Of a DNA stretch of 64,000 bases, positions 15,301 to 52,847 are shown in pieces. The stretch comes from an uncultured delta proteobacterium (GTDB lineage: Bacteria; Desulfobacterota; Binatia; UBA9968), in assembly GCA_963771465.1 (NCBI GenBank), contig CAVYTU010000011.1:216581-280580 (forward strand), given 5' to 3'. The notes beneath the pieces were generated by a model, which worked only from the letters and a program-made list of their open reading frames with translations, had not been told where the DNA came from and searched no databases. Position numbers and translations under genes: made by a program. Numbering within the stretch: position 1 is the first letter of the stretch; each line of letters opens with the position of its first letter.

Positions 15301-18300
15301 GCCATTCTCGATCGAAAAATTATCCACGTTCAAAACATGATGGCAGAGAGTGAACAGGACTTTGCCGATGCCTGGCGCACTGACGAGCGCCTAGGAATTC
15401 GCACATCGCTCGCGGTACCGCTGTTGCGCGAAGGCGTCGCCGTCGGCGCGATAATGATCCGCCGTACGGAAGTCCGGCCGTTCAGCGAAAAGCAGATCGC
15501 ACTGCTGCAAACCTTCGCCGACCAAGCAGTCATCGCCATCGAGAACGTGCGCTTATTCAAGGAACTCGGCGAGCGCAACGCGGAATTGCGCGAGGCTCTG
15601 GAGCATCAGACGGCGACGGCCGAGGTGCTTGGCATCATCAGCCGCTCGCCGACGGACGTGCAGCCGATCCTCGACGCCATCGTCGAGAGCGCCGCGCGGG
15701 TTTGTGGGATAGACGACGCGGTGCTGCGGCTTCGCGAGGGCGACACGATGACGGTGCGGGCTCATTTCGGACCCATACCGACTGGCCGTCCCCAGGTCGG
15801 CGTTGATGAGGCACAGTATCGTTGGATCCAGCGAGCGGGGCGCGCTCCATATTCCGGATCTCCACGCGCAGAATGAATTCCCAGGGGTAGGTTCCGCTGG
15901 ATATCGTACCTATTTGGCCGTTCCTCTTCTCCAGCAGCGGCAACTCATCGGCGTCCTGGCCGCGCGCCGCGTCGACGTGCACCCATTCACGCCGGCGCAG
16001 ATCAAGCTGCTTGAAACCTTCGCCGATCAGGCCGTGATCGCCATCGAGAACGTGCGGCTGTTCCAAGAGCTTACAGAATCGTTGGAGCAGCAAACTGCGA
16101 CGAGTCAAATCTTGGGCGTGATCGCCAGCTCGCCGACGGACATCCAACCCGTACTGGACACGATCGCAGCAAGCGCCGCGCAAATATGCGGTGCGGACGA
16201 TGCCGTCATCCGGCTTGTTGAAGGTAATGTCCTTTGCTTGAGAGCACACCAGGGTTCCATCCCATCTTTTTCACAAGCGCATGGAGCCGAGTCCGATTCC
16301 CTCGTTCGTGGTCGCGAGTGGATACCCGGCCGAGCGGTGCTCGATCGAGAGACGATTCATATTCATGACATTGCGGCAGTTGAAAATGAGTTTCCGGAGA
16401 CGCCGCGAGAGCCAGGCGGGCAGGGGTTCGCACGGCCCTCGCTGCACCGCTACTTCGCGAAGGCGCTGCGATCGGTGTAATTTTCATTCGACGAACCGAA
16501 GTCAACCCATTTACCGATAAACAGATATCACTGCTGAAAACCTTCGCCGACCAAGCCGTGATCGCGATCGAAAATGTGCGGCTGTTTCAAGGAACTCGGC
16601 GAGCGCAACGCGGAATTGCGCGAGGCGCTGGAGCATCAGACGGCGACGGCCGAGGTGCTCGGCATCATCAGCCGCTCGCCGACGGACGTGCAGCCGGTTC
16701 TCGACGCCATCGTCGAGAGCGCCGCCCGGGTTTGTGGGATTGATGACGTGGTGTTGCGACTCCGCGAGGGCAACGCTATGGTTTCGCGGGCTCATTTTGG
16801 TTCCATACCCATGGGCCGCATCGAGATCAGTATGGATGAGCCACAGTTTCGCTGGATGCGCGAGCATGGCACGCTCCACATTCCCGACGTCCGCGCGCAG
16901 AACGATTTCCCAATGGTGGGTTCCGCCGGCAGCTCGCGCACTATGTTGATCGTTCCCCTTCGTCAGCAGGGGGAATTCATTGGAGCACTGACCGCGCGTC
17001 GCATCGAGGTGCGCCCCTTCACCCCGGCGCAGATCAAGCTTCTTGAAACCTTCGCCGACCAAGCGGTTATCGCAATCGAGAACGTGCGGCTGTTTCAAGA
17101 ACTCAAAGAGTCATTGGAGCAGCAGACAGCGACGAGTGAAATCTTGGGTGTCATCGCCAGCTCACCGACAGATATCCAGCCGGTGTTGGATGTGGTCGCA
17201 GAAAACGCAGCACGGCTATGCGATGCAACCGACGCGGTGATTCATCGCATCGATGGCGACCAGCTTCGAGTAGTGGCTAATTTCGGTCCGTTGCCGGGAC
17301 GTGGAAATCTGCAATCGCTGCCAATAGACCGTGACTCTATACCCGGCAGAGCCATAATTGACCGGCAAACTTTTCACCTTGATGACCTGGCAGCATTGCC
17401 AAAGGATGACCTTCCAGCGGGCTTTGCCAGAAGTGTCGGTGTTCGGACGGTGCTGGCCACGCCGTTGCTGCGCGAGGGAATTCCCATCGGAGCGATTCAT
17501 ATCCGTCGTATGGAGGTCCGCCCGTTCACCGAGAAGCAGATCAAACTGCTCGAAACCTTTGCAGCCCAAGCCGTGATCGCCATTGAGAATGTCCGTCTGT
17601 TTAAAGAACTCGGCGAGCGCAACGCGGAATTGCGCGAGGCTCTGGAGCATCAGACGGCGACGGCCGAGGTGCTTGGCATTATCAGCCGCTCGCCGACGGA
17701 CGTGCAGCCGGTCCTGGACGCCATCGTCGAGAGCGCCGCGCGGGTTTGCGGGATCGATGACGTGCTGTTGCGACTCAACGAGAACGACTCTATGGTTTCG
17801 CGGGCTCATTTTGGTTCCATACCGATTAGCCGCGTCGAGATCGGTATTGATGAGCCACAGATTCACTGGATGCGCGAGCATGGCACGCTGCACATTCCCG
17901 ACTCTCGCGCGCAGAACGATTTTCCAATGTTGGGTGTCGTCGGCGGCTTTCGCACTTTGTTGGCCGTTCCCCTTCGTCAGCAGGGGAAACTCGTTGGATT
18001 ACTGAACGCGCGTCGCACCGAGGTGCGCCCCTTCACCCCGGCGCAGATCAAGCTGCTTGAAACCTTCGCCGACCAAGCGGTGATCGCCATCGAGAACGTC
18101 CGGCTGTTCCAAGAACTCACCGAAGCTTTGGAACAGCAGACTGCGACGAGTGAGAATATTGGGCGTCATCGCCAGCTCACCGACGGATATTCAGCCGGTG
18201 CTGGATGTGGTGGCCGAGAATGCGGCGCGGCTGTGCGACGCGACTGATGCTCATCATCATTCGCGTCGAGGGCGACATCCTACGAGTCGTCGCACCAATA

Positions 18301-20430
18301 CGGCTCAATGCCGGTGTCGCCGAACGTATCTACCACTGAGTCGGGGCATTGCCCGGTGGCCGGGCTATGATCGACCGGCAGACCATTCACATCCATGACA
18401 TCGCCGCGGAAGTCGAGACCGAGTTTCCGGAAGGCTAGAGTTGCTCAGCAACGTTCCGGTACTCGCACCGTACTTAACACGCCGTTGCTACGCGAAGGCG
18501 TAGCGATTGGTCGATCCTGATTCGCCGAACCGAAGTTCGCCCTTTTCAGAGAAACAGATCGCTCTGCTCGAAACATTTGCTGACCAGGCTGTCATCGCCA
18601 TCGAGAACGTCCGGCTGTTCAACGAGCTCGATACCCGCAACCGTCAGCTCACCGAAGCGTTGGAGCAGCAGACGGCGACGAGCGAGATCCTGCGCGTGAT
18701 CGCCAGCTCGCCGACGGATATTCAGCCGGTGCTGGATGTGGTGGCGGAAAACGCGGCGAGACTGTGCGACGCACCGATGCTGATATTTACCGTCGTGAAG
18801 GCAGCGACTATCGGATCGTGGCCGCGCGTGGAAATATGCCGATACCTCGGCCGACAGAGGCTCGTACCGCTCATCCGTGGCTTGCCTCCTGGACGAGCGA
18901 TCGATCGACCGGCAGCCCATCCATATTCATGACTGTCGAGTGCGGAAGCTCAGCAGAATTCCCCGAAGCCAAGGCAATGGTCAAAAACCACTCGGTCTCC
19001 GGACTGTTCTTGGCCGTGCCCTTACTTCGTGAAGGCATTGCGATCGGGGCGATCCTAATTCGTCGCAATGAGGTTCGACCTTTCAGCGATAAGCAGATCG
19101 CGCTACTCGAAACATTCGCTGATCAAGCCGTCATCGCCATCGAGAACGTGCGGCTGTTCCAAGAATTGCAAGAGCGAACGCAGCGAACTGATGGAGTCGG
19201 TCGAAGAAATGAAAGCGCTGGGCGAAGTCGGCCAGGCGGTGAGCTCGACGCTCGATCTCGAAACCGTGCTCGAAACCATCGTCGCACGCGCGGTCGATCT
19301 GTCGGGAACCGATTGCGGTGTCATTTACGAGTACGACGAAGCACGCAAGAGTTTTATTTGCGCGCAAGCCACGACATGGAAGCTGAGGCTGTCGAGAGGC
19401 TGCGAGCAGGCGCGAATTCGATTGAGTGAGAGGCGACTGCGGGTCAAGCGGCGCTCACTCGCGCGCCGGTGCAGAACGCGGATACTTGGATCAGCGTGAG
19501 ACGTCCGGCTTCGCGCGATCCGGCCGACTGCTGACGCGGCTCGGTTATCGTTCTCTTCTACCGTGCCGCTCTTGCGCGAGCAGCAGATTGTGGGCGCGTT
19601 GACGGTCTGGCGGCGGCAAGTCGGGGAATTCGATCCCGAAGTCGATGAATCTGCTGCAAACCTTCGCGACCCAATCGGCTCTGGCGATCCATAACGCGCG
19701 GCTGTTCCGCGAGATCGGCGACAAAAACCGCGAGATCGAAGCGGCCAATCGGCACAAGTCGGAGTTTCTCGCCAACGTGTCACACGAGCTGCGCACGCCG
19801 CTGAACGCGATCATCGGCTTTTCGGAAGTGCTATTGGAAAAATTCTTCGGCGAGCTAAACGACAAGCAGAACGAATATGTCGATGACATTCTTTCTTCCG
19901 GGCGCCATTTGCTGTCGCTGATCAACGACATCCTCGATCTGTCCAAGGTCGAAGCCGGGCGGATGGAGTTGGAAGTGACGCCCTTTTTCTTGCCGGATGC
20001 GATCGAGAACGCGCTACTGCTCGTGCGCGAGCGCGCCAGCCGGCATGGGATCAAACTTGATCGCGTCGTCGACGACCGCCTCGGCGACTTCACCGGCGAC
20101 GAGCGCAAGGTGAAACAGATTCTCGTCAACCTGCTGACCAACGCGGTAAAGTTCACGCCGGAGGGCGGACAAATTCGGGTGGAAGCTAGATTGGGCGACC
20201 GCGCGATAATCGTTTCTGTTATCGACACGGGAATTGGCATCGCCAAGGAAGATCAGGAGGCGATCTTCGAAGAGTTCCGCCAAGCCGGCGGCAACTACGC
20301 ACACAAGCGCGAAGGCACGGGACTGGGTTTAACTTTGACGAAACGCTTCATCGAAATGCACGGCGGCAAAATCTGGGTCGAGAGCGAGGTGGGGAAAGGA
20401 AGTACTTTTACATTCACGTTACCGACATAG
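12343..20430 (+). CDS. Giant cytoplasmic sensor histidine kinase with 14 GAF repeats plus HisKA/HATPase (~2,690 aa), broken by many indels
   Basis: 14 copies of the (T/S)[18 protein letters not shown] motif across frames; C-terminal [31 protein letters not shown]; no transmembrane segment seen. Confidence 0.8.
14545..18110 (+). repeat. Four copies of one GAF subtype ([18 protein letters not shown]..) at ~1.02 kb period
   Basis: Copies start at 14545, 15571, 16601 and 17615, alternating with more divergent GAFs. Confidence 0.9.
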
Positions 20431-20466
20431 TGAGTGTGGCAGGTCTGTATGCTGGAAGGACTTATT

Positions 20467-20913
20467 CACCACGAAGGACACGAAGGTCACGAAGGGAAGA
20501 CAAAGACGATAGTGAAATTTGATGACTTATCAAACAAGTTCATCGGTTGTGCCATCGAGGTCCACCGCGAGCTTGGGCCTGGTTTGCTTGAATCAACTTA
20601 CGAACAGTGCCTCGCTTATGAACTCAACCGAGCCAAGATTCCATTCAAACTTCAAGTGGAGTTGCCCGTTGAGTACAAAGAAATCCGGCTTGACTGTGGA
20701 TACAGAATTGATCTGCTGGTCGACGATCGTTTGATCGTTGAATTGAAAAGCGTCGATCAGTTGCTCAAAATTCATGAAGCACAGGTGTTAACCTACATGA
20801 AACTCGCTGCGATTGGAGTCGGCTTACTGATCAACTTTAACGTTGATGTATTGAGAAGAGGTATTAGAAGATTTGTTTTCTGAACCTTCGTGTCCTTCGT
20901 GACCTTCGTGGTG
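20467..20913. mobile_element. Putative GxxExxY cassette bounded by 29-bp inverted repeats built from 9-bp units
   Basis: Left 20467-20495 CACCACGAAGGACACGAAGGTCACGAAGG; right 20885-20913 matches its reverse complement at 27/29; sits between the kinase and its regulator; mobility is inferred. Confidence 0.55.
20512..20883 (+). CDS. GxxExxY protein (PD-(D/E)XK nuclease-like)
   Basis: HRELGPGLLESTYEQCL, RIDLLV..IVELKS, QVLTY, GLLINF; GTG start at 20512 inferred. Confidence 0.92.
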   Translation: MKFDDLSNKFIGCAIEVHRELGPGLLESTYEQCLAYELNRAKIPFKLQVELPVEYKEIRLDCGYRIDLLVDDRLIVELKSVDQLLKIHEAQVLTYMKLAAIGVGLLINFNVDVLRRGIRRFVF

Positions 20914-20978
20914 GACAAAATCAAAACACCCGGAGCGATTCTGCTTCACAGTAGACAACCGTGGTCAAGGAGAAGTCC

Positions 20979-21362
20979 GTGGCGAATGAACTGATTTTGA
21001 TCATCGAGGATAACGAGAAGAACCGTAAGCTCTGCCGCGATGTGTTGCAGGTGAAAGGTTATCGGACCATCGAGTCTGAGACCGCGGAAATAGGGCTTGA
21101 TCTCGCGCGCGGTCAAACGCCGGATTTGATTCTCATGGACATCCAGCTGCCCGGCATGGACGGCATCACGGCGATGAAGCAGCTCAAGGCTGATGCGCAG
21201 ACGAAAACCATCCCCATCATCGCGATCACCGCGTCGGCGATGACCAACAATCGGACAAGTATGCTTGCCGAAGGATTCGACGGCTACCAGACCAAGCCGA
21301 TCGCGTTGAAAGACTTTCTCGGCGAAGTGGAACGTGCGCTGGCGGCGCGGGGGAACTCGTAA
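20979..21362 (+). CDS. Single-domain response regulator (DivK-like)
   Basis: IIEDN, DLILMDIQLPGMDG, TASAM, TKP; AAGGAG RBS. Confidence 0.9.
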   Translation: MANELILIIEDNEKNRKLCRDVLQVKGYRTIESETAEIGLDLARGQTPDLILMDIQLPGMDGITAMKQLKADAQTKTIPIIAITASAMTNNRTSMLAEGFDGYQTKPIALKDFLGEVERALAARGNS

Positions 21363-21436: not shown

Positions 21437-22552
21437 GTGAACACTCCAGCCAAAATACTCGTCGTCGACGACACGCTGCGCAACGTCAAGCTGCTCGCCG
21501 ATCTGTTGAGTGTCAAAGGCTATGCCGCGATGACGGCTTCTTCCGGACAAGAAGCGTTGGCTAAGATCGCCGCGGAGGCGCCGGACTTGGTGCTTCTCGA
21601 CGTGGTGATGCCGGAGATGAGCGGCTACGAGGTTTGTCAGAAGATTCGCGAGAATTCAGCGACGGCGATGCTGCCGGTTATTATGGTCACGGCGCTCGAT
21701 CCCGCGGAAGAACGGGTAAAGGGAATTGAAGCAGGCGCGGATGATTTTCTCACCAAGCCGATCAATCAAGGCGAGTTGCTTGCGCGGGTGAAGTCGCTGC
21801 TGCGCATTAAGGAATTGCACGACACAGTTCAATCGCAAGCCGCCGAGCTCTCCGACTGGAACAAAAACTTGGAATTGCGGGTTCAGGAGCAGGTTCAACA
21901 GCTCGAACGCTTGGGACGGTTAAAACGATTCTTTTCACCTCAACTGGCCGAGCTGATCGTCAGCGGCGGCGCCGATGATCCGTTGAAGACGCACCGCTGC
22001 GAGCTGACCGTGGTGTTTCTCGACCTGCGCGGTTTCACGGCTTTCGCCGAAACCGCCGAGCCGGAAGAAGTGATGGGCGTGCTGCACGAGTATCATGCGG
22101 CGATGGGACGATTGATTCTCGATTACGAAGCGACGCTGGAACATTTTGCCGGCGACGGCATGATGATTTTCTTCAATGACCCGGTGCCGGTGGCCAATCC
22201 CGCGGAGCGGGCAATCCGCATGACGCTGGCGATGCGTGCGCGCGTGACCGAGCTTGGCGCCAAGTGGCAGAAGCTCGGTTACGATCTCGGCTTCGGCGTC
22301 GGTATCGCGCAGGGCTATGCGACCATCGGCGCCATCGGCTTCGAAGGACGCTGGGAATACGGCGCCATCGGCAGCGTGCCCAATCTAGCAGCGCGTCTGT
22401 GCGGCGAAGCGAAGCCGGGAGAGATTTTGATCGCTCAACGGCTATTGGCCAGCAGTGAAGAGTGGGTCGAGTACGAAGCGGTGGGCGAGTTAACGCTCAA
22501 AGGTTTTCATCGTCCGGTGCCGGCTTACCGCGTCCTGCGGCTGAAGGATTAG
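21437..22552 (+). CDS. Response regulator receiver fused to class III adenylate/guanylate cyclase
   Basis: VVDD, LLDVVMP receiver; FLDLRGFT, FAGDG, PNLAARL cyclase motifs. Confidence 0.9.
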   Translation: MNTPAKILVVDDTLRNVKLLADLLSVKGYAAMTASSGQEALAKIAAEAPDLVLLDVVMPEMSGYEVCQKIRENSATAMLPVIMVTALDPAEERVKGIEAGADDFLTKPINQGELLARVKSLLRIKELHDTVQSQAAELSDWNKNLELRVQEQVQQLERLGRLKRFFSPQLAELIVSGGADDPLKTHRCELTVVFLDLRGFTAFAETAEPEEVMGVLHEYHAAMGRLILDYEATLEHFAGDGMMIFFNDPVPVANPAERAIRMTLAMRARVTELGAKWQKLGYDLGFGVGIAQGYATIGAIGFEGRWEYGAIGSVPNLAARLCGEAKPGEILIAQRLLASSEEWVEYEAVGELTLKGFHRPVPAYRVLRLKD

Positions 22553-36732: not shown

Positions 36733-36744
36733 GTGTTAACGAAT

Positions 36745-36812
36745 TGGAGTAGTGGAGTGCTGGAGTACTGGGTTTTCGAATAACTCATCACTCCAACACT
36801 CCATTACTCCAG
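36745..36812. repeat. REP-like palindrome of 8-bp TGGAGTAN units
   Basis: TGGAGTAG TGGAGTGC TGGAGTAC TGGGTT..AACTCATCACTCCAACACTCCATTACTCCA. Confidence 0.75.
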
Positions 36813-36958
36813 TGTGTTTATACTCATGGTGAATCAGTTAACCTCGATCTTCATGCGTTGAGTCCAGCATGCCACGTGATTCGTGGCGATGATCCAATAT
36901 AAAATTGGTCGGCGACTGTCACCAAAAGGTATCTTTATTGCGCTGGGCTTTTGGATTA

Positions 36959-50147: not shown

Positions 50148-52847
50148 ATGGCGGAACGAGGGGTCGACCCAAAAGAAGAAAAAAAATCCTACGGTAGCGT
50201 TTTCGTTATCGGCGCCAGCTTATTGGTGATGTTGACCCTATGGGCATACTGGGACGACAATATTTCCCGCCGTCCATGGAAAGGCATTCAATCTCACTTC
50301 TATCGGCTGGATTACAACAAGGCCAAAGCCGCTTACAATGAAGAGGACAAAAAGCTTCACGCCGATGAAAAGTACCAAGAGCTGGCGAAGAAACTGGCCG
50401 CGTTCCAGTCGAGTCTTACGGACGGCGAACTAGGCAAGAAACTCAAGAGTTTGGAGAACGAAGAAGCGCGGGTGACGGTCAAATTCCAAGAAGCCGATCA
50501 ACGCGTGAAGGATGTTAAGAGCGAGTTGGAAGAAGCATGGTATGAGCATGACCACGCGGTCCAGCAAAAGCGCAATCCGAAACCTTACTTGGACGTGATC
50601 GCTGAACTCGACAAAAAGAAAGAGCAGCTGGATAAGGCGCTCGAGCCGTTGCGGGCTAGGCGCAATCAGCTCAAAGAAGAAATCAAGAAGATCCAAACCG
50701 GCGCCAAGGACATCGAGACTGAGCTTGCCAAGCTGACGGCGGAGCGCGACAAATGGGTCCGGGTGATGGAGAACGCGACTTTTAAGCTCGGTCCGCTCTC
50801 GCCGTATAAGATTCCCAAGATTCAACAGGTGTCGCTCGACGAATTCGACCGTAACCGTTTCGATCAACCGGTGGCGCGCGTCGACCGCTGCCAGACTTGC
50901 CATCTGGCGATCAACCGGGCCGGTTTTGAAAAAGAACCGCAGCCATTCAGAACTCATCCGCGGCGCGAAGTTCTCTTAGCGGACAACGCTCATCCGCCGG
51001 ATAGAGTCGGTTGCACAGGTTGCCACGAAGGCCAAGGCGTTGCGGTGAACAGCGTGAAGCAAGCCCATGGTGAAGTTCACCTTTGGGAATTCCCGTTGCT
51101 GCGCGGCAATAAAGCGCAATCGAGCTGCACCTCTTGCCATCTCGACGTGCAAAAGTACGCCGAGGATGCGCCGCTGTTGGCCGATGGGCAACGACTATTC
51201 GAACAAGTCGGTTGCACCGGCTGCCATCTCGTCAAAGGCTATGAGAACATCCCGAAAATCGCGCCGAGCTTGAGAAAAATCAGCGCTAAAGTCGATCCCG
51301 GCTGGATGGTGCGGTGGATCGAGAACCCGCACAAGTTCCGGCCGCGCACACGCATGCCGAATTTCGATTTGAAACCGGATGACGCGATCGCGATCGCCTC
51401 CTATATCTGGTCGCAGTCCAAAGAGGAAGGCGATAAGTGGACCCAGGAAAATCCCCTGCCCGCCGGACTGCGCGAGGGCGATGCCAACGAAGCGGCGAAG
51501 GGCAAAAAATTGGTCGAGACGATCGGTTGTAAGGGTTGCCATGGTTTCGCCGAGGGAGAATTCACCACGCCACTCGGTAAAGAAAAAGATCTGGTTCCCA
51601 ATCTCAAAGACGTCGCCTCTAAGGTCGGGCCGCAGTGGATTTATCACTGGATCAAAAACCCGCGCGGCTTTGCGCCCGACACGCGCATGCCGAGCTTGCG
51701 GCTTGCTGACGATGAAGCGCGGGCAATCACCACTTACTTGACGACTCTCGGCGCCAAGCCAGAACCTATGGCAGGGATAGAAGAGAAACTCGCCGATGCC
51801 AAAAATATCAAACGCGGCGAATCGTTGGTGCGCAAATGGGGTTGCTTTGGCTGCCACGACATTAAAGGCATGGAAAAAGAATCCCGCATCGGCGCCGAGC
51901 TGACCACCTTCGGTTCAAAAAAAGTAGAGGAGTTGGCTTTCGGCAACCGCACCGATATCAAAGAGACGTGGGACGACTGGACCTACCACAAATTAAAAAC
52001 GCCGCGCATATACGCCACCGAGCGAATCGACCAACTGATGCCGCAATTCAATTTGGCCGATGAGGACATCAAGGCGCTACGCATCGCGCTCGGCGGTTTC
52101 CGCGAGCTCAAGGTTGGCAAGCGCTATCAGGCGGATCAAGGACTGCGCACACAGCAAGTCGTCGAAGGGCGCCGGTTGATGCAGCAATACAACTGCGTCG
52201 GTTGCCACGAGATCGAAAATCGCGGCGGCTTTGTCCGCAAGTACTATCAGGAAAACGTCGCCCTCGCGCCGCCGCCGCTCAATGGCGAAGGCGAGAAGGT
52301 TCAGTCGCAGTGGTTCTTCGGTTTCTTGAAAGCGCCGGTTCCGCTGCGGCCGTGGCTCGACATTCGCATGCCGACCTTCGGTCTTTCCGACGACCATACA
52401 ACGCAGCTGGTGAACTTTTTCAACGGCCTGTCGAAGGTCGAGCAACCCTACGCTTATATCGATGACAAGAATATTCCGCCGGAGCATATCGAAGCCGCCA
52501 AGGTTTTGACTTCGAAGGATTATTTCAACTGCTTTAGCTGCCATATGCAGGGCGCCAAGACGCCTGAAGGTCCCAAGGAAGGTTGGGCGCCGGATCTGAC
52601 GATGGCGCGCCAGCGTTTGAATCCCAACTGGATTCTCAAGTGGCTGAAGGACCCACAGAAAGTTCAACCGGGCACCAAGATGCCGTCGTTCTATCCAGGC
52701 GGTCCGGATAACGTTCTCGGCGGCAAGGAAGACTTGCAAATCGAAGCTCTGCGCGATTATTTAATGTCAATCGGCCGTGGTGGTGCTGCGCCCATGGCTG
52801 CGACTCCGGCGCCGGCACAAGTGGCTAAAGCCAAGCCGGCAAAGTGA
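50148..52847 (+). CDS. Membrane-anchored octaheme cytochrome c with coiled-coil stalk
   Basis: 8 CxxCH: CQTCH, CTGCH, CTSCH, CTGCH, CKGCH, CFGCH, CVGCH, CFSCH. Confidence 0.9.
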   Translation: MAERGVDPKEEKKSYGSVFVIGASLLVMLTLWAYWDDNISRRPWKGIQSHFYRLDYNKAKAAYNEEDKKLHADEKYQELAKKLAAFQSSLTDGELGKKLKSLENEEARVTVKFQEADQRVKDVKSELEEAWYEHDHAVQQKRNPKPYLDVIAELDKKKEQLDKALEPLRARRNQLKEEIKKIQTGAKDIETELAKLTAERDKWVRVMENATFKLGPLSPYKIPKIQQVSLDEFDRNRFDQPVARVDRCQTCHLAINRAGFEKEPQPFRTHPRREVLLADNAHPPDRVGCTGCHEGQGVAVNSVKQAHGEVHLWEFPLLRGNKAQSSCTSCHLDVQKYAEDAPLLADGQRLFEQVGCTGCHLVKGYENIPKIAPSLRKISAKVDPGWMVRWIENPHKFRPRTRMPNFDLKPDDAIAIASYIWSQSKEEGDKWTQENPLPAGLREGDANEAAKGKKLVETIGCKGCHGFAEGEFTTPLGKEKDLVPNLKDVASKVGPQWIYHWIKNPRGFAPDTRMPSLRLADDEARAITTYLTTLGAKPEPMAGIEEKLADAKNIKRGESLVRKWGCFGCHDIKGMEKESRIGAELTTFGSKKVEELAFGNRTDIKETWDDWTYHKLKTPRIYATERIDQLMPQFNLADEDIKALRIALGGFRELKVGKRYQADQGLRTQQVVEGRRLMQQYNCVGCHEIENRGGFVRKYYQENVALAPPPLNGEGEKVQSQWFFGFLKAPVPLRPWLDIRMPTFGLSDDHTTQLVNFFNGLSKVEQPYAYIDDKNIPPEHIEAAKVLTSKDYFNCFSCHMQGAKTPEGPKEGWAPDLTMARQRLNPNWILKWLKDPQKVQPGTKMPSFYPGGPDNVLGGKEDLQIEALRDYLMSIGRGGAAPMAATPAPAQVAKAKPAK

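Follow-up and report, generated by a model that had tools for sequence, protein, structure and literature searches.

Elements of bacterial genomes built from repetitive extragenic palindromes (REPs) and REP-associated tyrosine transposases (RAYTs) are among the known systems closest to the locus reported here: the gene of a REPIN-RAYT system (PMC3116915, PMC5581495, 10.1101/2022.05.22.493013) is flanked by its own inverted short repeats, which are also dispersed as tens to hundreds of intergenic hairpins, typically with one gene per repeat family and genome, a clade-specific repeat and long, mostly vertical inheritance. Our locus lies in a stretch of 64,000 nucleotides (hereafter the window; contig CAVYTU010000011.1 of an uncultured delta proteobacterium) and consists of a gene for a GxxExxY protein, a predicted minimal PD-(D/E)XK nuclease, placed in the loop of a hairpin that belongs to a dispersed family with arms of short tandem units (iterons). 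This description is secure, and the pattern is general across phyla. Foldback elements and miniature inverted-repeat transposable elements (MITEs) likewise have arms of tandem sub-repeats and many short non-coding copies beside few or one coding copy, and Cas4/RecB nucleases and archaeal Hjc agree with the protein in fold and active-site residues (weak Foldseek and PADLOC matches). Finally, the intervening sequences (IVSs) of 23S rRNA in Coxiella and Leptospira have terminal inverted repeats, a stem of ~28 bp and a small open reading frame (ORF) of the S23p type; the report on the Coxiella IVS (PMC4990558) describes a 28-bp terminal stem with the ORF in its loop, three tandem heptamers directly upstream of the ORF, a weak Shine-Dalgarno sequence (SD) within the stem, co-transcription with the host operon, and cleavage of the stem by RNase III, which takes the SD away.

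From each of these systems the cassette departs in several respects. In place of an HUH/Y1 transposase it encodes a 123-aa PD-(D/E)XK (RecB/Cas4-like) hydrolase, its arms are three 8-9-nt iterons rather than a GTAG/CGTC-tagged REP, its gene lies inside one hairpin instead of beside REP singlets, and the whole cassette appears to be exchanged between sites and is shared across phyla. Unlike the 23S IVS, it resides outside rRNA (between a kinase gene and a regulator gene, not in helix 25 or 45 of 23S rRNA), carries a nuclease as cargo and has a dispersed gene-less family. In contrast to foldback elements and MITEs, it is bacterial, far smaller and without a recognisable transposase, and no target-site duplication (TSD) was seen in what is a weak test. 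The protein, in turn, corresponds to the ~120-aa core of Cas4 only, with neither an Fe-S cluster domain nor a CRISPR context.

The cassette occupies the spacer of a kinase-regulator operon and is co-directional with both genes. Upstream, a sensor histidine kinase gene ends with its 3′ catalytic part (HisKA and HATPase_c; 19645..20430, + strand), and downstream follows a receiver-only response regulator (20961..21362, + strand), both assigned from ORFs and Pfam/NCBIfam profiles; the regulator ORF opens with a GTG at 20961, and its orthologues start at the residues VANELILI, corresponding to 20979. The left arm reads CAC-CACGAAGG-A-CACGAAGG-T-CACGAAGG (20467-20495), i.e. CAC plus three 9-nt CACGAAGGN units, and is purine-rich on the sense strand. 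The right arm reads CCTTCGTG-T-CCTTCGTG-A-CCTTCGTG-GTG (20885-20913), with its three units at 20885-20910. The arms match at 27 of 29 positions, both mismatches being spacer letters that would oppose each other as A.A and T.T when paired. Between them lies the GxxExxY gene (20512..20883, + strand; 123 aa), supported by profiles, alignment and a structural model; its GTG start comes 16 nt after the end of the left array, and the right array begins 1 nt beyond its TGA stop (20881-20883). The start at 20512 is backed by the homologue alignment, in which 19 relatives begin at the same position; a longer ORF from 20434, which only reads the left arm through as HHEGHEGHEG, was discarded. GC content across the gene is 0.43-0.47, compared with 0.55-0.63 in the neighbours on both sides. 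The matching arms and their distances from start and stop, the AT-richness of the gene, the separation of a kinase from a response regulator and the GxxExxY identity had been read from the letters in an earlier note on this DNA, and all of these readings held up.

Within the window, a repeat search returned the inverted pair 20462-20495 / 20885-20918 (34 nt, 88% complementary, 389 nt apart), and a two-unit pattern occurred four times, always within the cassette arms, against an expectation of 0.05 and with four or more occurrences in none of 100 shuffles. RNA folding of 20455-20925 (-160.2 kcal/mol, z -5.5) predicted the left arm, extended by flanking pairing (20465-20504), to anneal to a right arm that comprises the last codons and stop of the gene together with the three units and the terminal GTG (20872-20915). 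The resulting stem of ~40 bp covers the 5′ leader as well as the last codons and the stop of the GxxExxY gene. An Rfam scan of 20300-21100 gave no match.

The encoded protein scored 151.3 bits against TIGR04256 ('GxxExxY protein'; cut-off 35) and 148.9 bits against PF13366 (PDDEXK_3; cut-off 22). These were its only matches in the Pfam/NCBIfam scan, where an HUH/Y1 (IS200/IS605-like) transposase was not matched. Residues G22, G24, L26, E27, Y30, Q48, D67, E77, K79, H88, Q91, Y95, L106 and N108 are invariant in 19 relatives, a set that includes the GxxExxY helix (G24..E27..Y30), the catalytic D67, E77 and K79, and the pair Q91..Y95; a Q..Y pair after ExK is a RecB-family motif. The AlphaFold (AF2) model (predicted local distance difference test, pLDDT, 94.8; element order H-H-E-E-E-E-E-H-E) retrieved only weak Foldseek matches (E 5e-3 or worse), the best being Cas4 SSO0001 (4ic1, E 5e-3), lambda exonuclease and Hjc resolvases (2wiw); splicing endonucleases and I-Bth0305I were among the others. 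PADLOC likewise gave a weak Cas4 match (E 0.0015), with nothing else among the defence-system models, and a sequence search of PDB chains returned no related solved structure, only chance-level sortase matches. The protein is thus a minimal but intact nuclease core of RecB/Cas4 type and has no further domain that would account for specificity. Members of the family are widespread among bacteria and also present in some archaea (at least 607 stretches in a scan of one genome per species, 602 of those listed being confirmed), and the 2012 PD-(D/E)XK survey lists the function of PDDEXK_3 as 'Unknown'. A literature search found nothing linking GxxExxY/PDDEXK_3 proteins to flanking repeats or hairpin families; subscription journals, supplements and database family notes lay outside this search, so prior notice is possible.

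The genome of the window (G000; 6.9 Mb, 19 contigs) contains a single GxxExxY gene, and its arms recur throughout. Pairing left with right CACGAAG arrays identified 36 short elements with loops of 15-32 nt in addition to the gene-holding one with its 391-nt loop. An nhmmer profile derived from 20 copies, by which we define the hairpin family, detected 56 loci, i.e. the two cassette arms and 54 others of 33-88 nt built of CACGAAG 9-nt units, 33 of these 54 being full-length (~70-88 nt). The profile replaced a loose regular expression that had given 169 matches, mostly false and many of them in genes. The GxxExxY gene sits exactly at the position of the 15-32-nt loop of the short copies. These copies share their asymmetries (the unit spacers are GGA followed by GAG on one arm, with the order reversed on the opposite arm), an inner TTCGGA/TCCGAA stem and one loop; the common arm asymmetries and inner stem argue that the short hairpins were copied from one progenitor, and they make an orientation of the element definable. 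The inverted repeat extends out to TTCAC/GTGAA. When folded as single-stranded DNA, one short copy reached -29.6 kcal/mol (z -8), and Rfam returned for one short hairpin only a sub-threshold plant microRNA model (21 bits vs 87). The copies lie in short spacers, mostly 10-50 nt from neighbouring ORFs: 33 of 54 between tandem genes, 16 in convergent and five in divergent spacers, counts that are rough since the crude longest-ORF neighbour call behind them mis-called the regulator beside the cassette. Relative to tandem genes, the hairpins show no preferred orientation (18 vs 15). Across species, non-orthologous copies are 85-96% alike, exceeding the surrounding genes in similarity.

Arms of this kind accompany GxxExxY genes far beyond the window. 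Two sets of loci were compared, namely 30 loci around GxxExxY matches in the genus and order and 79 loci from contigs of one genome per species, the latter spanning Desulfobacterota, Planctomycetota, Verrucomicrobiota, Acidobacteriota, Bacteroidota, Cyanobacteria, Chloroflexota, Proteobacteria, Chlamydiota and Omnitrophota as well as one Saccharimonadales and one Methanothrix genome. The genus relatives and the 79-locus set together yielded 102 intact homologues with both flanks; an unpublished genome (G005) was left out of this and every other statistic. A flanking inverted repeat (local score of at least 14) was present at 69 of the 102 homologues and, as a control, at 11 of 308 further ORFs from these loci. 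This control replaced a first null, which joined upstream and downstream flanks taken from different loci and was inflated because loci share unit types. The inverted repeats that the earlier note had proposed to look for around homologues are thus found at the majority of them, and homologues devoid of flanking repeats, which it had named as the contrary outcome, are the minority.

The arms consist of arrays of 7-nt cores at 8-9-nt spacing (CRCNRAG-type), among them CACGAAG, CACAGAG, CGCAAAG/GCAAAGG, CACGGAG, CACAAAG, CGCAGAG, CATGAAG and CACGAAA. At 64 of the 102 homologues the purine-rich unit lies on the sense strand 5′ of the gene, at 11 the unit order is reversed, placing the gene between two whole short hairpins, and one is a tie. 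Mapped onto a FastTree phylogeny of the protein (76 of 102 labelled), arm type changes 22 times, compared with 39-53 times in 200 label shuffles. Among 91 pairs of CACGAAG cassettes with proteins below 75% aa identity, the arms are 91% identical, as opposed to 41%, near saturation, at third positions of conserved residues; the comparison is partly circular in that loci were picked by unit type. At one Planctomycetota locus (L085; protein 66% identical), the arms are identical to short copies of G000. For the 71 loci scored for strand, the gene has the orientation of both neighbours in 37 and is opposite to both in eight. Decayed cassettes occur as well: L016, L017 and L183 are interrupted by stops, G012 and G019 contain fragments, and G004 keeps a solo array. 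As a separate observation, the non-pairing positions of 59 cassette stems comprise 37 A.A and 18 T.T oppositions, largely at unit spacers, as in the window arms.

The number of dispersed arrays tends to follow the presence of the cognate gene, with exceptions. We counted CACGAAGNNCACGAAG on both strands of 31 genus genomes and typed the arms of every GxxExxY match; counts ranged from 0 to 481, with 0-1 for a reversed-pattern control. Genomes with an open CACGAAG-armed gene had a median of 250 arrays (G000 89, G003 250, G006 30, G007 318, G009 481, G012 242, G014 478), and two with only broken CACGAAG-type copies had 258 (G008) and 70 (G017), as compared to 0-232 (median 21.5) in the 20 genomes with no CACGAAG-armed gene; G046 (16 arrays) stood outside these groups. 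For armed-gene against gene-less genomes, a one-sided Mann-Whitney test gives P 0.0006, and P 0.008 among genomes at least 90% complete (6 vs 10); since the genomes are kin, both P values overstate the difference. The unpublished G005, with 107 arrays and a CACGAAG-armed gene, fits the pattern. A second unit type behaves similarly: four genomes with a CACAAAG-armed gene contain 67, 40, 25 and 11 CACAAAG arrays, as opposed to no more than 26 (median 2) in the other 26 genomes, where the higher values belong to genomes whose CACGAAG populations are very large. Beyond the genus, G029, a member of another family of the same order, combines a CACGAAG-armed gene with 96 arrays, its congener G025 has neither gene nor arrays, and three complete genomes of a third (sister) family lack the gene and have 1, 1 and 2 arrays. 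The genome-wide count suggested in the earlier note has revealed arrays that are dispersed indeed, with 54 further loci in G000 and as many as 481 arrays in a relative.

In the comparison across phyla, five genomes chosen for their CACGAAG cassettes hold 53, 4, 3, 6 and 31 CACGAAG arrays and 2, 1, 0, 0 and 0 CACAGAG arrays; conversely, five with CACAGAG cassettes hold 9, 43, 37, 8 and 10 CACAGAG arrays and 2, 0, 2, 0 and 0 of the CACGAAG type. As one cassette itself supplies up to ~4 array matches, the informative part of this comparison is the absence of the non-cognate array type.

Comparison of orthologous sites indicates that cassettes move or are exchanged at fixed positions. A CACGAAG-type cassette occupies the kinase|regulator junction in G000, G003, G008 and G029, and cassettes of the same type (74-81% aa identity) lie between two CoA-transferase-like genes in G006, G014, G007, G009, G012 and G017, as well as in the unpublished G005. 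At the kinase|regulator junction, G003 resembles G000 in the kinase end (95%), the regulator (89%) and the GxxExxY protein (90%) alike and has CACGAAG-type arms. In G020, G024, G019, G007, G015, G006, G014 and G044, the kinase end (77-92%) and regulator (81-90%) are similarly close to those of G000, and the GxxExxY protein is only 40-47% identical and has GCAAAGG-type arms, which are intact in most of these genomes and degenerate in G020. The distribution of the two cassette types at this junction does not track flank similarity. Other genomes carry further variants at this position, i.e. a solo left array in a 173-nt spacer (G004) or a TTTTGGATT hairpin made of another unit (G011). In G045, the spacer (L049:2249-2774) measures 526 nt and begins with a CAC/CACGAAGG-like stretch, read as HHHEG at the kinase end; it contains array remains and short ORFs only, with no GxxExxY match, and is probably a decayed cassette.

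The CoA-transferase site of G000 was searched for a CACGAAG hairpin, and a TGGAGT-like hairpin was found in its 92-nt spacer instead; a paralogous pair there has a 1-nt spacer. Paralogous kinase-regulator pairs are separated by 21-28 nt. Hence, contrary to the notion of one conserved gene syntenic in all relatives, two clades of GxxExxY gene alternate at the kinase|regulator junction, and orthologous sites hold differing cassettes or hairpins; the empty site that the earlier note had suggested seeking in relatives was encountered in a true form only at paralogous pairs (gaps 1-28 nt). One Planctomycetota genome (G047; L184-L186) harbours three CACGAAG cassettes in differing contexts, two of them nearly identical. 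Each adjoins a conserved segment of ~110 nt with a perfect 18-bp palindrome, and different palindromic elements therefore nest together in this genome. Because another palindromic repeat adjoins the cassettes, the ends of the mobile unit are unreadable from these copies.

Similar arrays exist with other units and other cargo. G000 contains further dispersed arrays of GTTCAA (158 at 9-nt and 21 at 8-nt spacing), TGGAGT (70 two-unit arrays, reversed control 0) and CGCAAAG (29) units, with zero or near-zero counts in reversed controls; the CGCAAAG arrays exist without any cognate GxxExxY gene in G000. Apparent 'loops' of 1-2.7 kb between GTTCAA, TGGAGT or TGGAAC arrays were rejected as cargo, being pairs of separate hairpins around ordinary genes. 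All six G000 genes of the TIGR02436 four-helix-bundle family, i.e. the 23S rRNA IVS protein family (C9:290153-290473, C17:495727-496044, C5:66913-67170, C17:1040065-1040262, C18:5472-5792 and C5:85118-85330), lie outside rRNA and are flanked by inverted arrays of short units; each has its own unit, one of them being the GTTCAA type that is also dispersed. The accessory protein Avd of diversity-generating retroelements belongs to the same family. The window itself contains a TGGAGT hairpin just past a stop codon (36743-36813), composed of three 8-nt units, a 14-nt loop and three inverse units.

Based on this comparative analysis, we read the locus as a palindromic cassette that is REPIN/RAYT-like and IVS-like at once and whose nuclease recognises its own iterons, a reading to which we give roughly even credence. 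The nuclease, probably as a multimer, would recognise these iterons when the DNA is single-stranded or folded into a hairpin or cruciform. Once host repair or replication has completed its cuts, the gene-less hairpins would be kept and multiplied, and the gene-bearing copy would occasionally be moved or exchanged. In the operon transcript, the arms would close a stem of ~40 bp that buries the weak leader and GTG start and keeps expression very low; such an IVS-like RNA stem may constitute a second layer that silences the gene. Iteron binding, cleavage, the copying route and RNA processing are steps we infer; the recurrence of the gene together with its repeats across phyla points to a nuclease that may maintain or spread them. 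The RAYT/REP-like selfish unit envisaged in the earlier note gains from the dispersed arms, the arms of homologues across phyla, the co-occurrence of arrays and gene, and the finding of two loci and two clades, and its 'transposase-free mobile cassette' stays conjectural.

Several observations weigh against this reading. The strongest reason not to assume the nuclease to be the mobilising enzyme is that six non-nuclease four-helix-bundle genes reside in the same cassettes: the cassette form is common to two unrelated cargo families, and a cargo-independent mechanism is possible. A PD-(D/E)XK hydrolase alone cannot perform strand transfer, and the case for binding or cutting of the arms by the protein is circumstantial. 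A TSD of at least 3 nt was found in none of 32 copies, the right anchor often being misplaced on an inner unit; direct repeats of k=2 in 15 of these 32 were dismissed as an artefact of that misplacement. Two of the short hairpins have orthologous counterparts in G003 and G014 (coding DNA ~80% identical); most short copies are thus old, and no recent insertion was caught. CRCNRAG-type arms are lacking at 26 of the 102 homologues, and the tree signal of the arm types is what co-inheritance of gene and arms alone predicts, and as such no proof of recognition. Exceptions to the array-gene relation are G020 (232 arrays), G044 (126) and G024 (112), which have no detectable CACGAAG-armed gene, and G006, which has such a gene yet 30 arrays only. 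Lastly, three of the five cross-phylum CACGAAG genomes hold little beyond the cassette itself.

An alternative that we regard as unlikely places the element at the RNA level. In this scenario, RNase III would cut the ~40-bp stem of the transcript, separate the kinase and regulator messages and release or silence the ORF, with the short hairpins acting as REP-like RNA stabilisers or terminators and the nuclease having no role in spreading them. The architecture equals that of the Coxiella IVS (PMC4990558) and is shared by 6/6 genes of the IVS protein family in G000; the predicted long-range stem covers leader and stop codon. The co-orientation of cassettes with their neighbours (37 loci, as opposed to eight in the opposite orientation) and the scarcity of short hairpins in divergent (5/54) relative to convergent spacers (16/54) point the same way, although the hairpins themselves occur in both orientations to tandem genes (18 vs 15). 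In three soil metatranscriptome runs, contigs extend from the kinase through both arms and the gene into the regulator with 0-2 differences, but contigs are uninformative about RNA ends, and DNA may be present in such libraries. A clean excision joint was sought in these RNA-library contigs and not found. Candidate gene-skipping joints (20492-20495 to 20883-20887) were rejected: they carry 8-40 foreign letters, also appear in the DNA run X1 and were attributed to short hairpins from elsewhere. In 59 stems, mismatches of the G.U type (48) and the A.C type (43) are balanced, i.e. there is no sense-strand RNA signal. A purely structural stem, moreover, needs neither tandem units nor 91% sequence identity across phyla, and the tracking of the cognate gene by array type and number would be left unexplained; the tandem-unit build and sequence conservation of the arms suggest arrays of protein-binding sites rather than a stem with a structural role alone. 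The pairing of the arms in the mRNA, which the earlier note had offered as its own alternative, fits the architecture of the Coxiella IVS, but the RNA-library contigs run straight through the cassette.

A quite improbable second alternative is that the hairpins came first, REP-like and spread by something else, and that the gene is a homing nuclease parasitic on them: a free-standing endonuclease would cut the loop or tip of a hairpin and be copied in by repair through the ~30-bp arm homology. This would suit the position of the gene exactly at the 15-32-nt loop of the short copies and the 11 of 102 genes that lie between two whole hairpins. It would also suit the replacements at fixed sites, i.e. 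a CACGAAG cassette, a GCAAAGG cassette, the TTTTGGATT hairpin (G011) or the solo array (G004) at the kinase|regulator junction, and CACGAAG cassettes or, in G000, the TGGAGT-like hairpin at the CoA-transferase site. Among the weak fold matches is I-Bth0305I, a PD-(D/E)XK homing endonuclease; I-Ssp6803I is another. A homing gene, however, should fill many hairpins, yet G000 has one gene per 54 further hairpin loci. Several genomes with a cassette have hardly any short hairpins (4, 3 and 6 arrays), and non-cognate arrays are absent where the gene is absent, which fits a dependence of the hairpins on the gene better than the reverse.

That the protein is instead a tightly silenced, potentially toxic host or defence nuclease of the Cas4-like kind, with the arms as private operator or translation-control sites and the hairpins as relics of decayed cassettes that have no continuing tie to the protein, seems very improbable: the GTG start, weak leader and buried start region, the weak Cas4-like profile matches and the decayed cassettes described above (L016, L017, L183, G012, G019 and G004) would be accommodated, but the loop and arm asymmetries shared by the short copies point to one short progenitor rather than independent decays, a gene present once would hardly have left relics in such number (as many as 481 arrays in one genome), and the defence models gave no match besides the weak Cas4 one.

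Returning to the iteron-recognising cassette, a wider and more tentative proposal, which we think doubtful on balance, would make GxxExxY proteins the enzymes of an unrecognised, nearly pan-bacterial class of iteron-armed palindromic elements. Each clade would read its own 7-9-nt iteron (CACGAAG, CACAGAG, GCAAAGG and others) and, through cuts in DNA folded as a hairpin or cruciform, would seed and maintain families of gene-less hairpins numbering in the tens to hundreds; the ORF-bearing 23S rRNA IVS would be the best-known special case, and four-helix-bundle (Avd-like) proteins a third cargo, acting by binding. If true, this would amount to a second independent invention of the REPIN-RAYT lifestyle, with a hydrolytic nuclease replacing the tyrosine transposase. 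The finding at the cassette level would offer a second model, beside RAYTs, for the joint persistence of a single-copy gene and a non-coding repeat population. It would also offer an origin for the abundant intergenic hairpin repeats of poorly studied soil phyla and tie the thirty-year-old puzzle of ORF-bearing rRNA intervening sequences to a general element class. A constant, sequence-specific partner in the form of inverted iteron arrays would render the unknown function of GxxExxY proteins testable at the bench. For annotation, the finding explains the splitting of operons by these small AT-rich genes and calls for caution, in that the arms can pass for HEGHEG-type N-terminal extensions.

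The remaining observations concern the surroundings of the cassette and other repeats of the genome. On the same strand, the receiver-only regulator is followed by a response regulator fused to an adenylate/guanylate cyclase domain (21437..22552, + strand; ORFs and profiles). Upstream of the catalytic part of the kinase, GAF-like modules with a recurrent shared ending extend over 16574-19499 in several overlapping frames (16574-18247, 18507-18932, 18764-19429 and 19068-19499), representing a long sensor gene broken by frameshifts or, alternatively, tandem repeats that collapsed in the assembly. A stretch of at least 160 nt at window positions ~52673-52785 (G000:C11:269253-269365) recurs at G000:C10:14273-14385, which may reflect a duplication or assembly redundancy (estimated contamination 6.29%). 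Finally, G024 contains dozens of copies, 72-84% identical, of a separate repeat of ~240 nt (L146:2928-3168, i.e. G000:C15:1197427-1197667); G003 and G014 have some copies too, and the repeat bears no relation to the CACGAAG hairpin.

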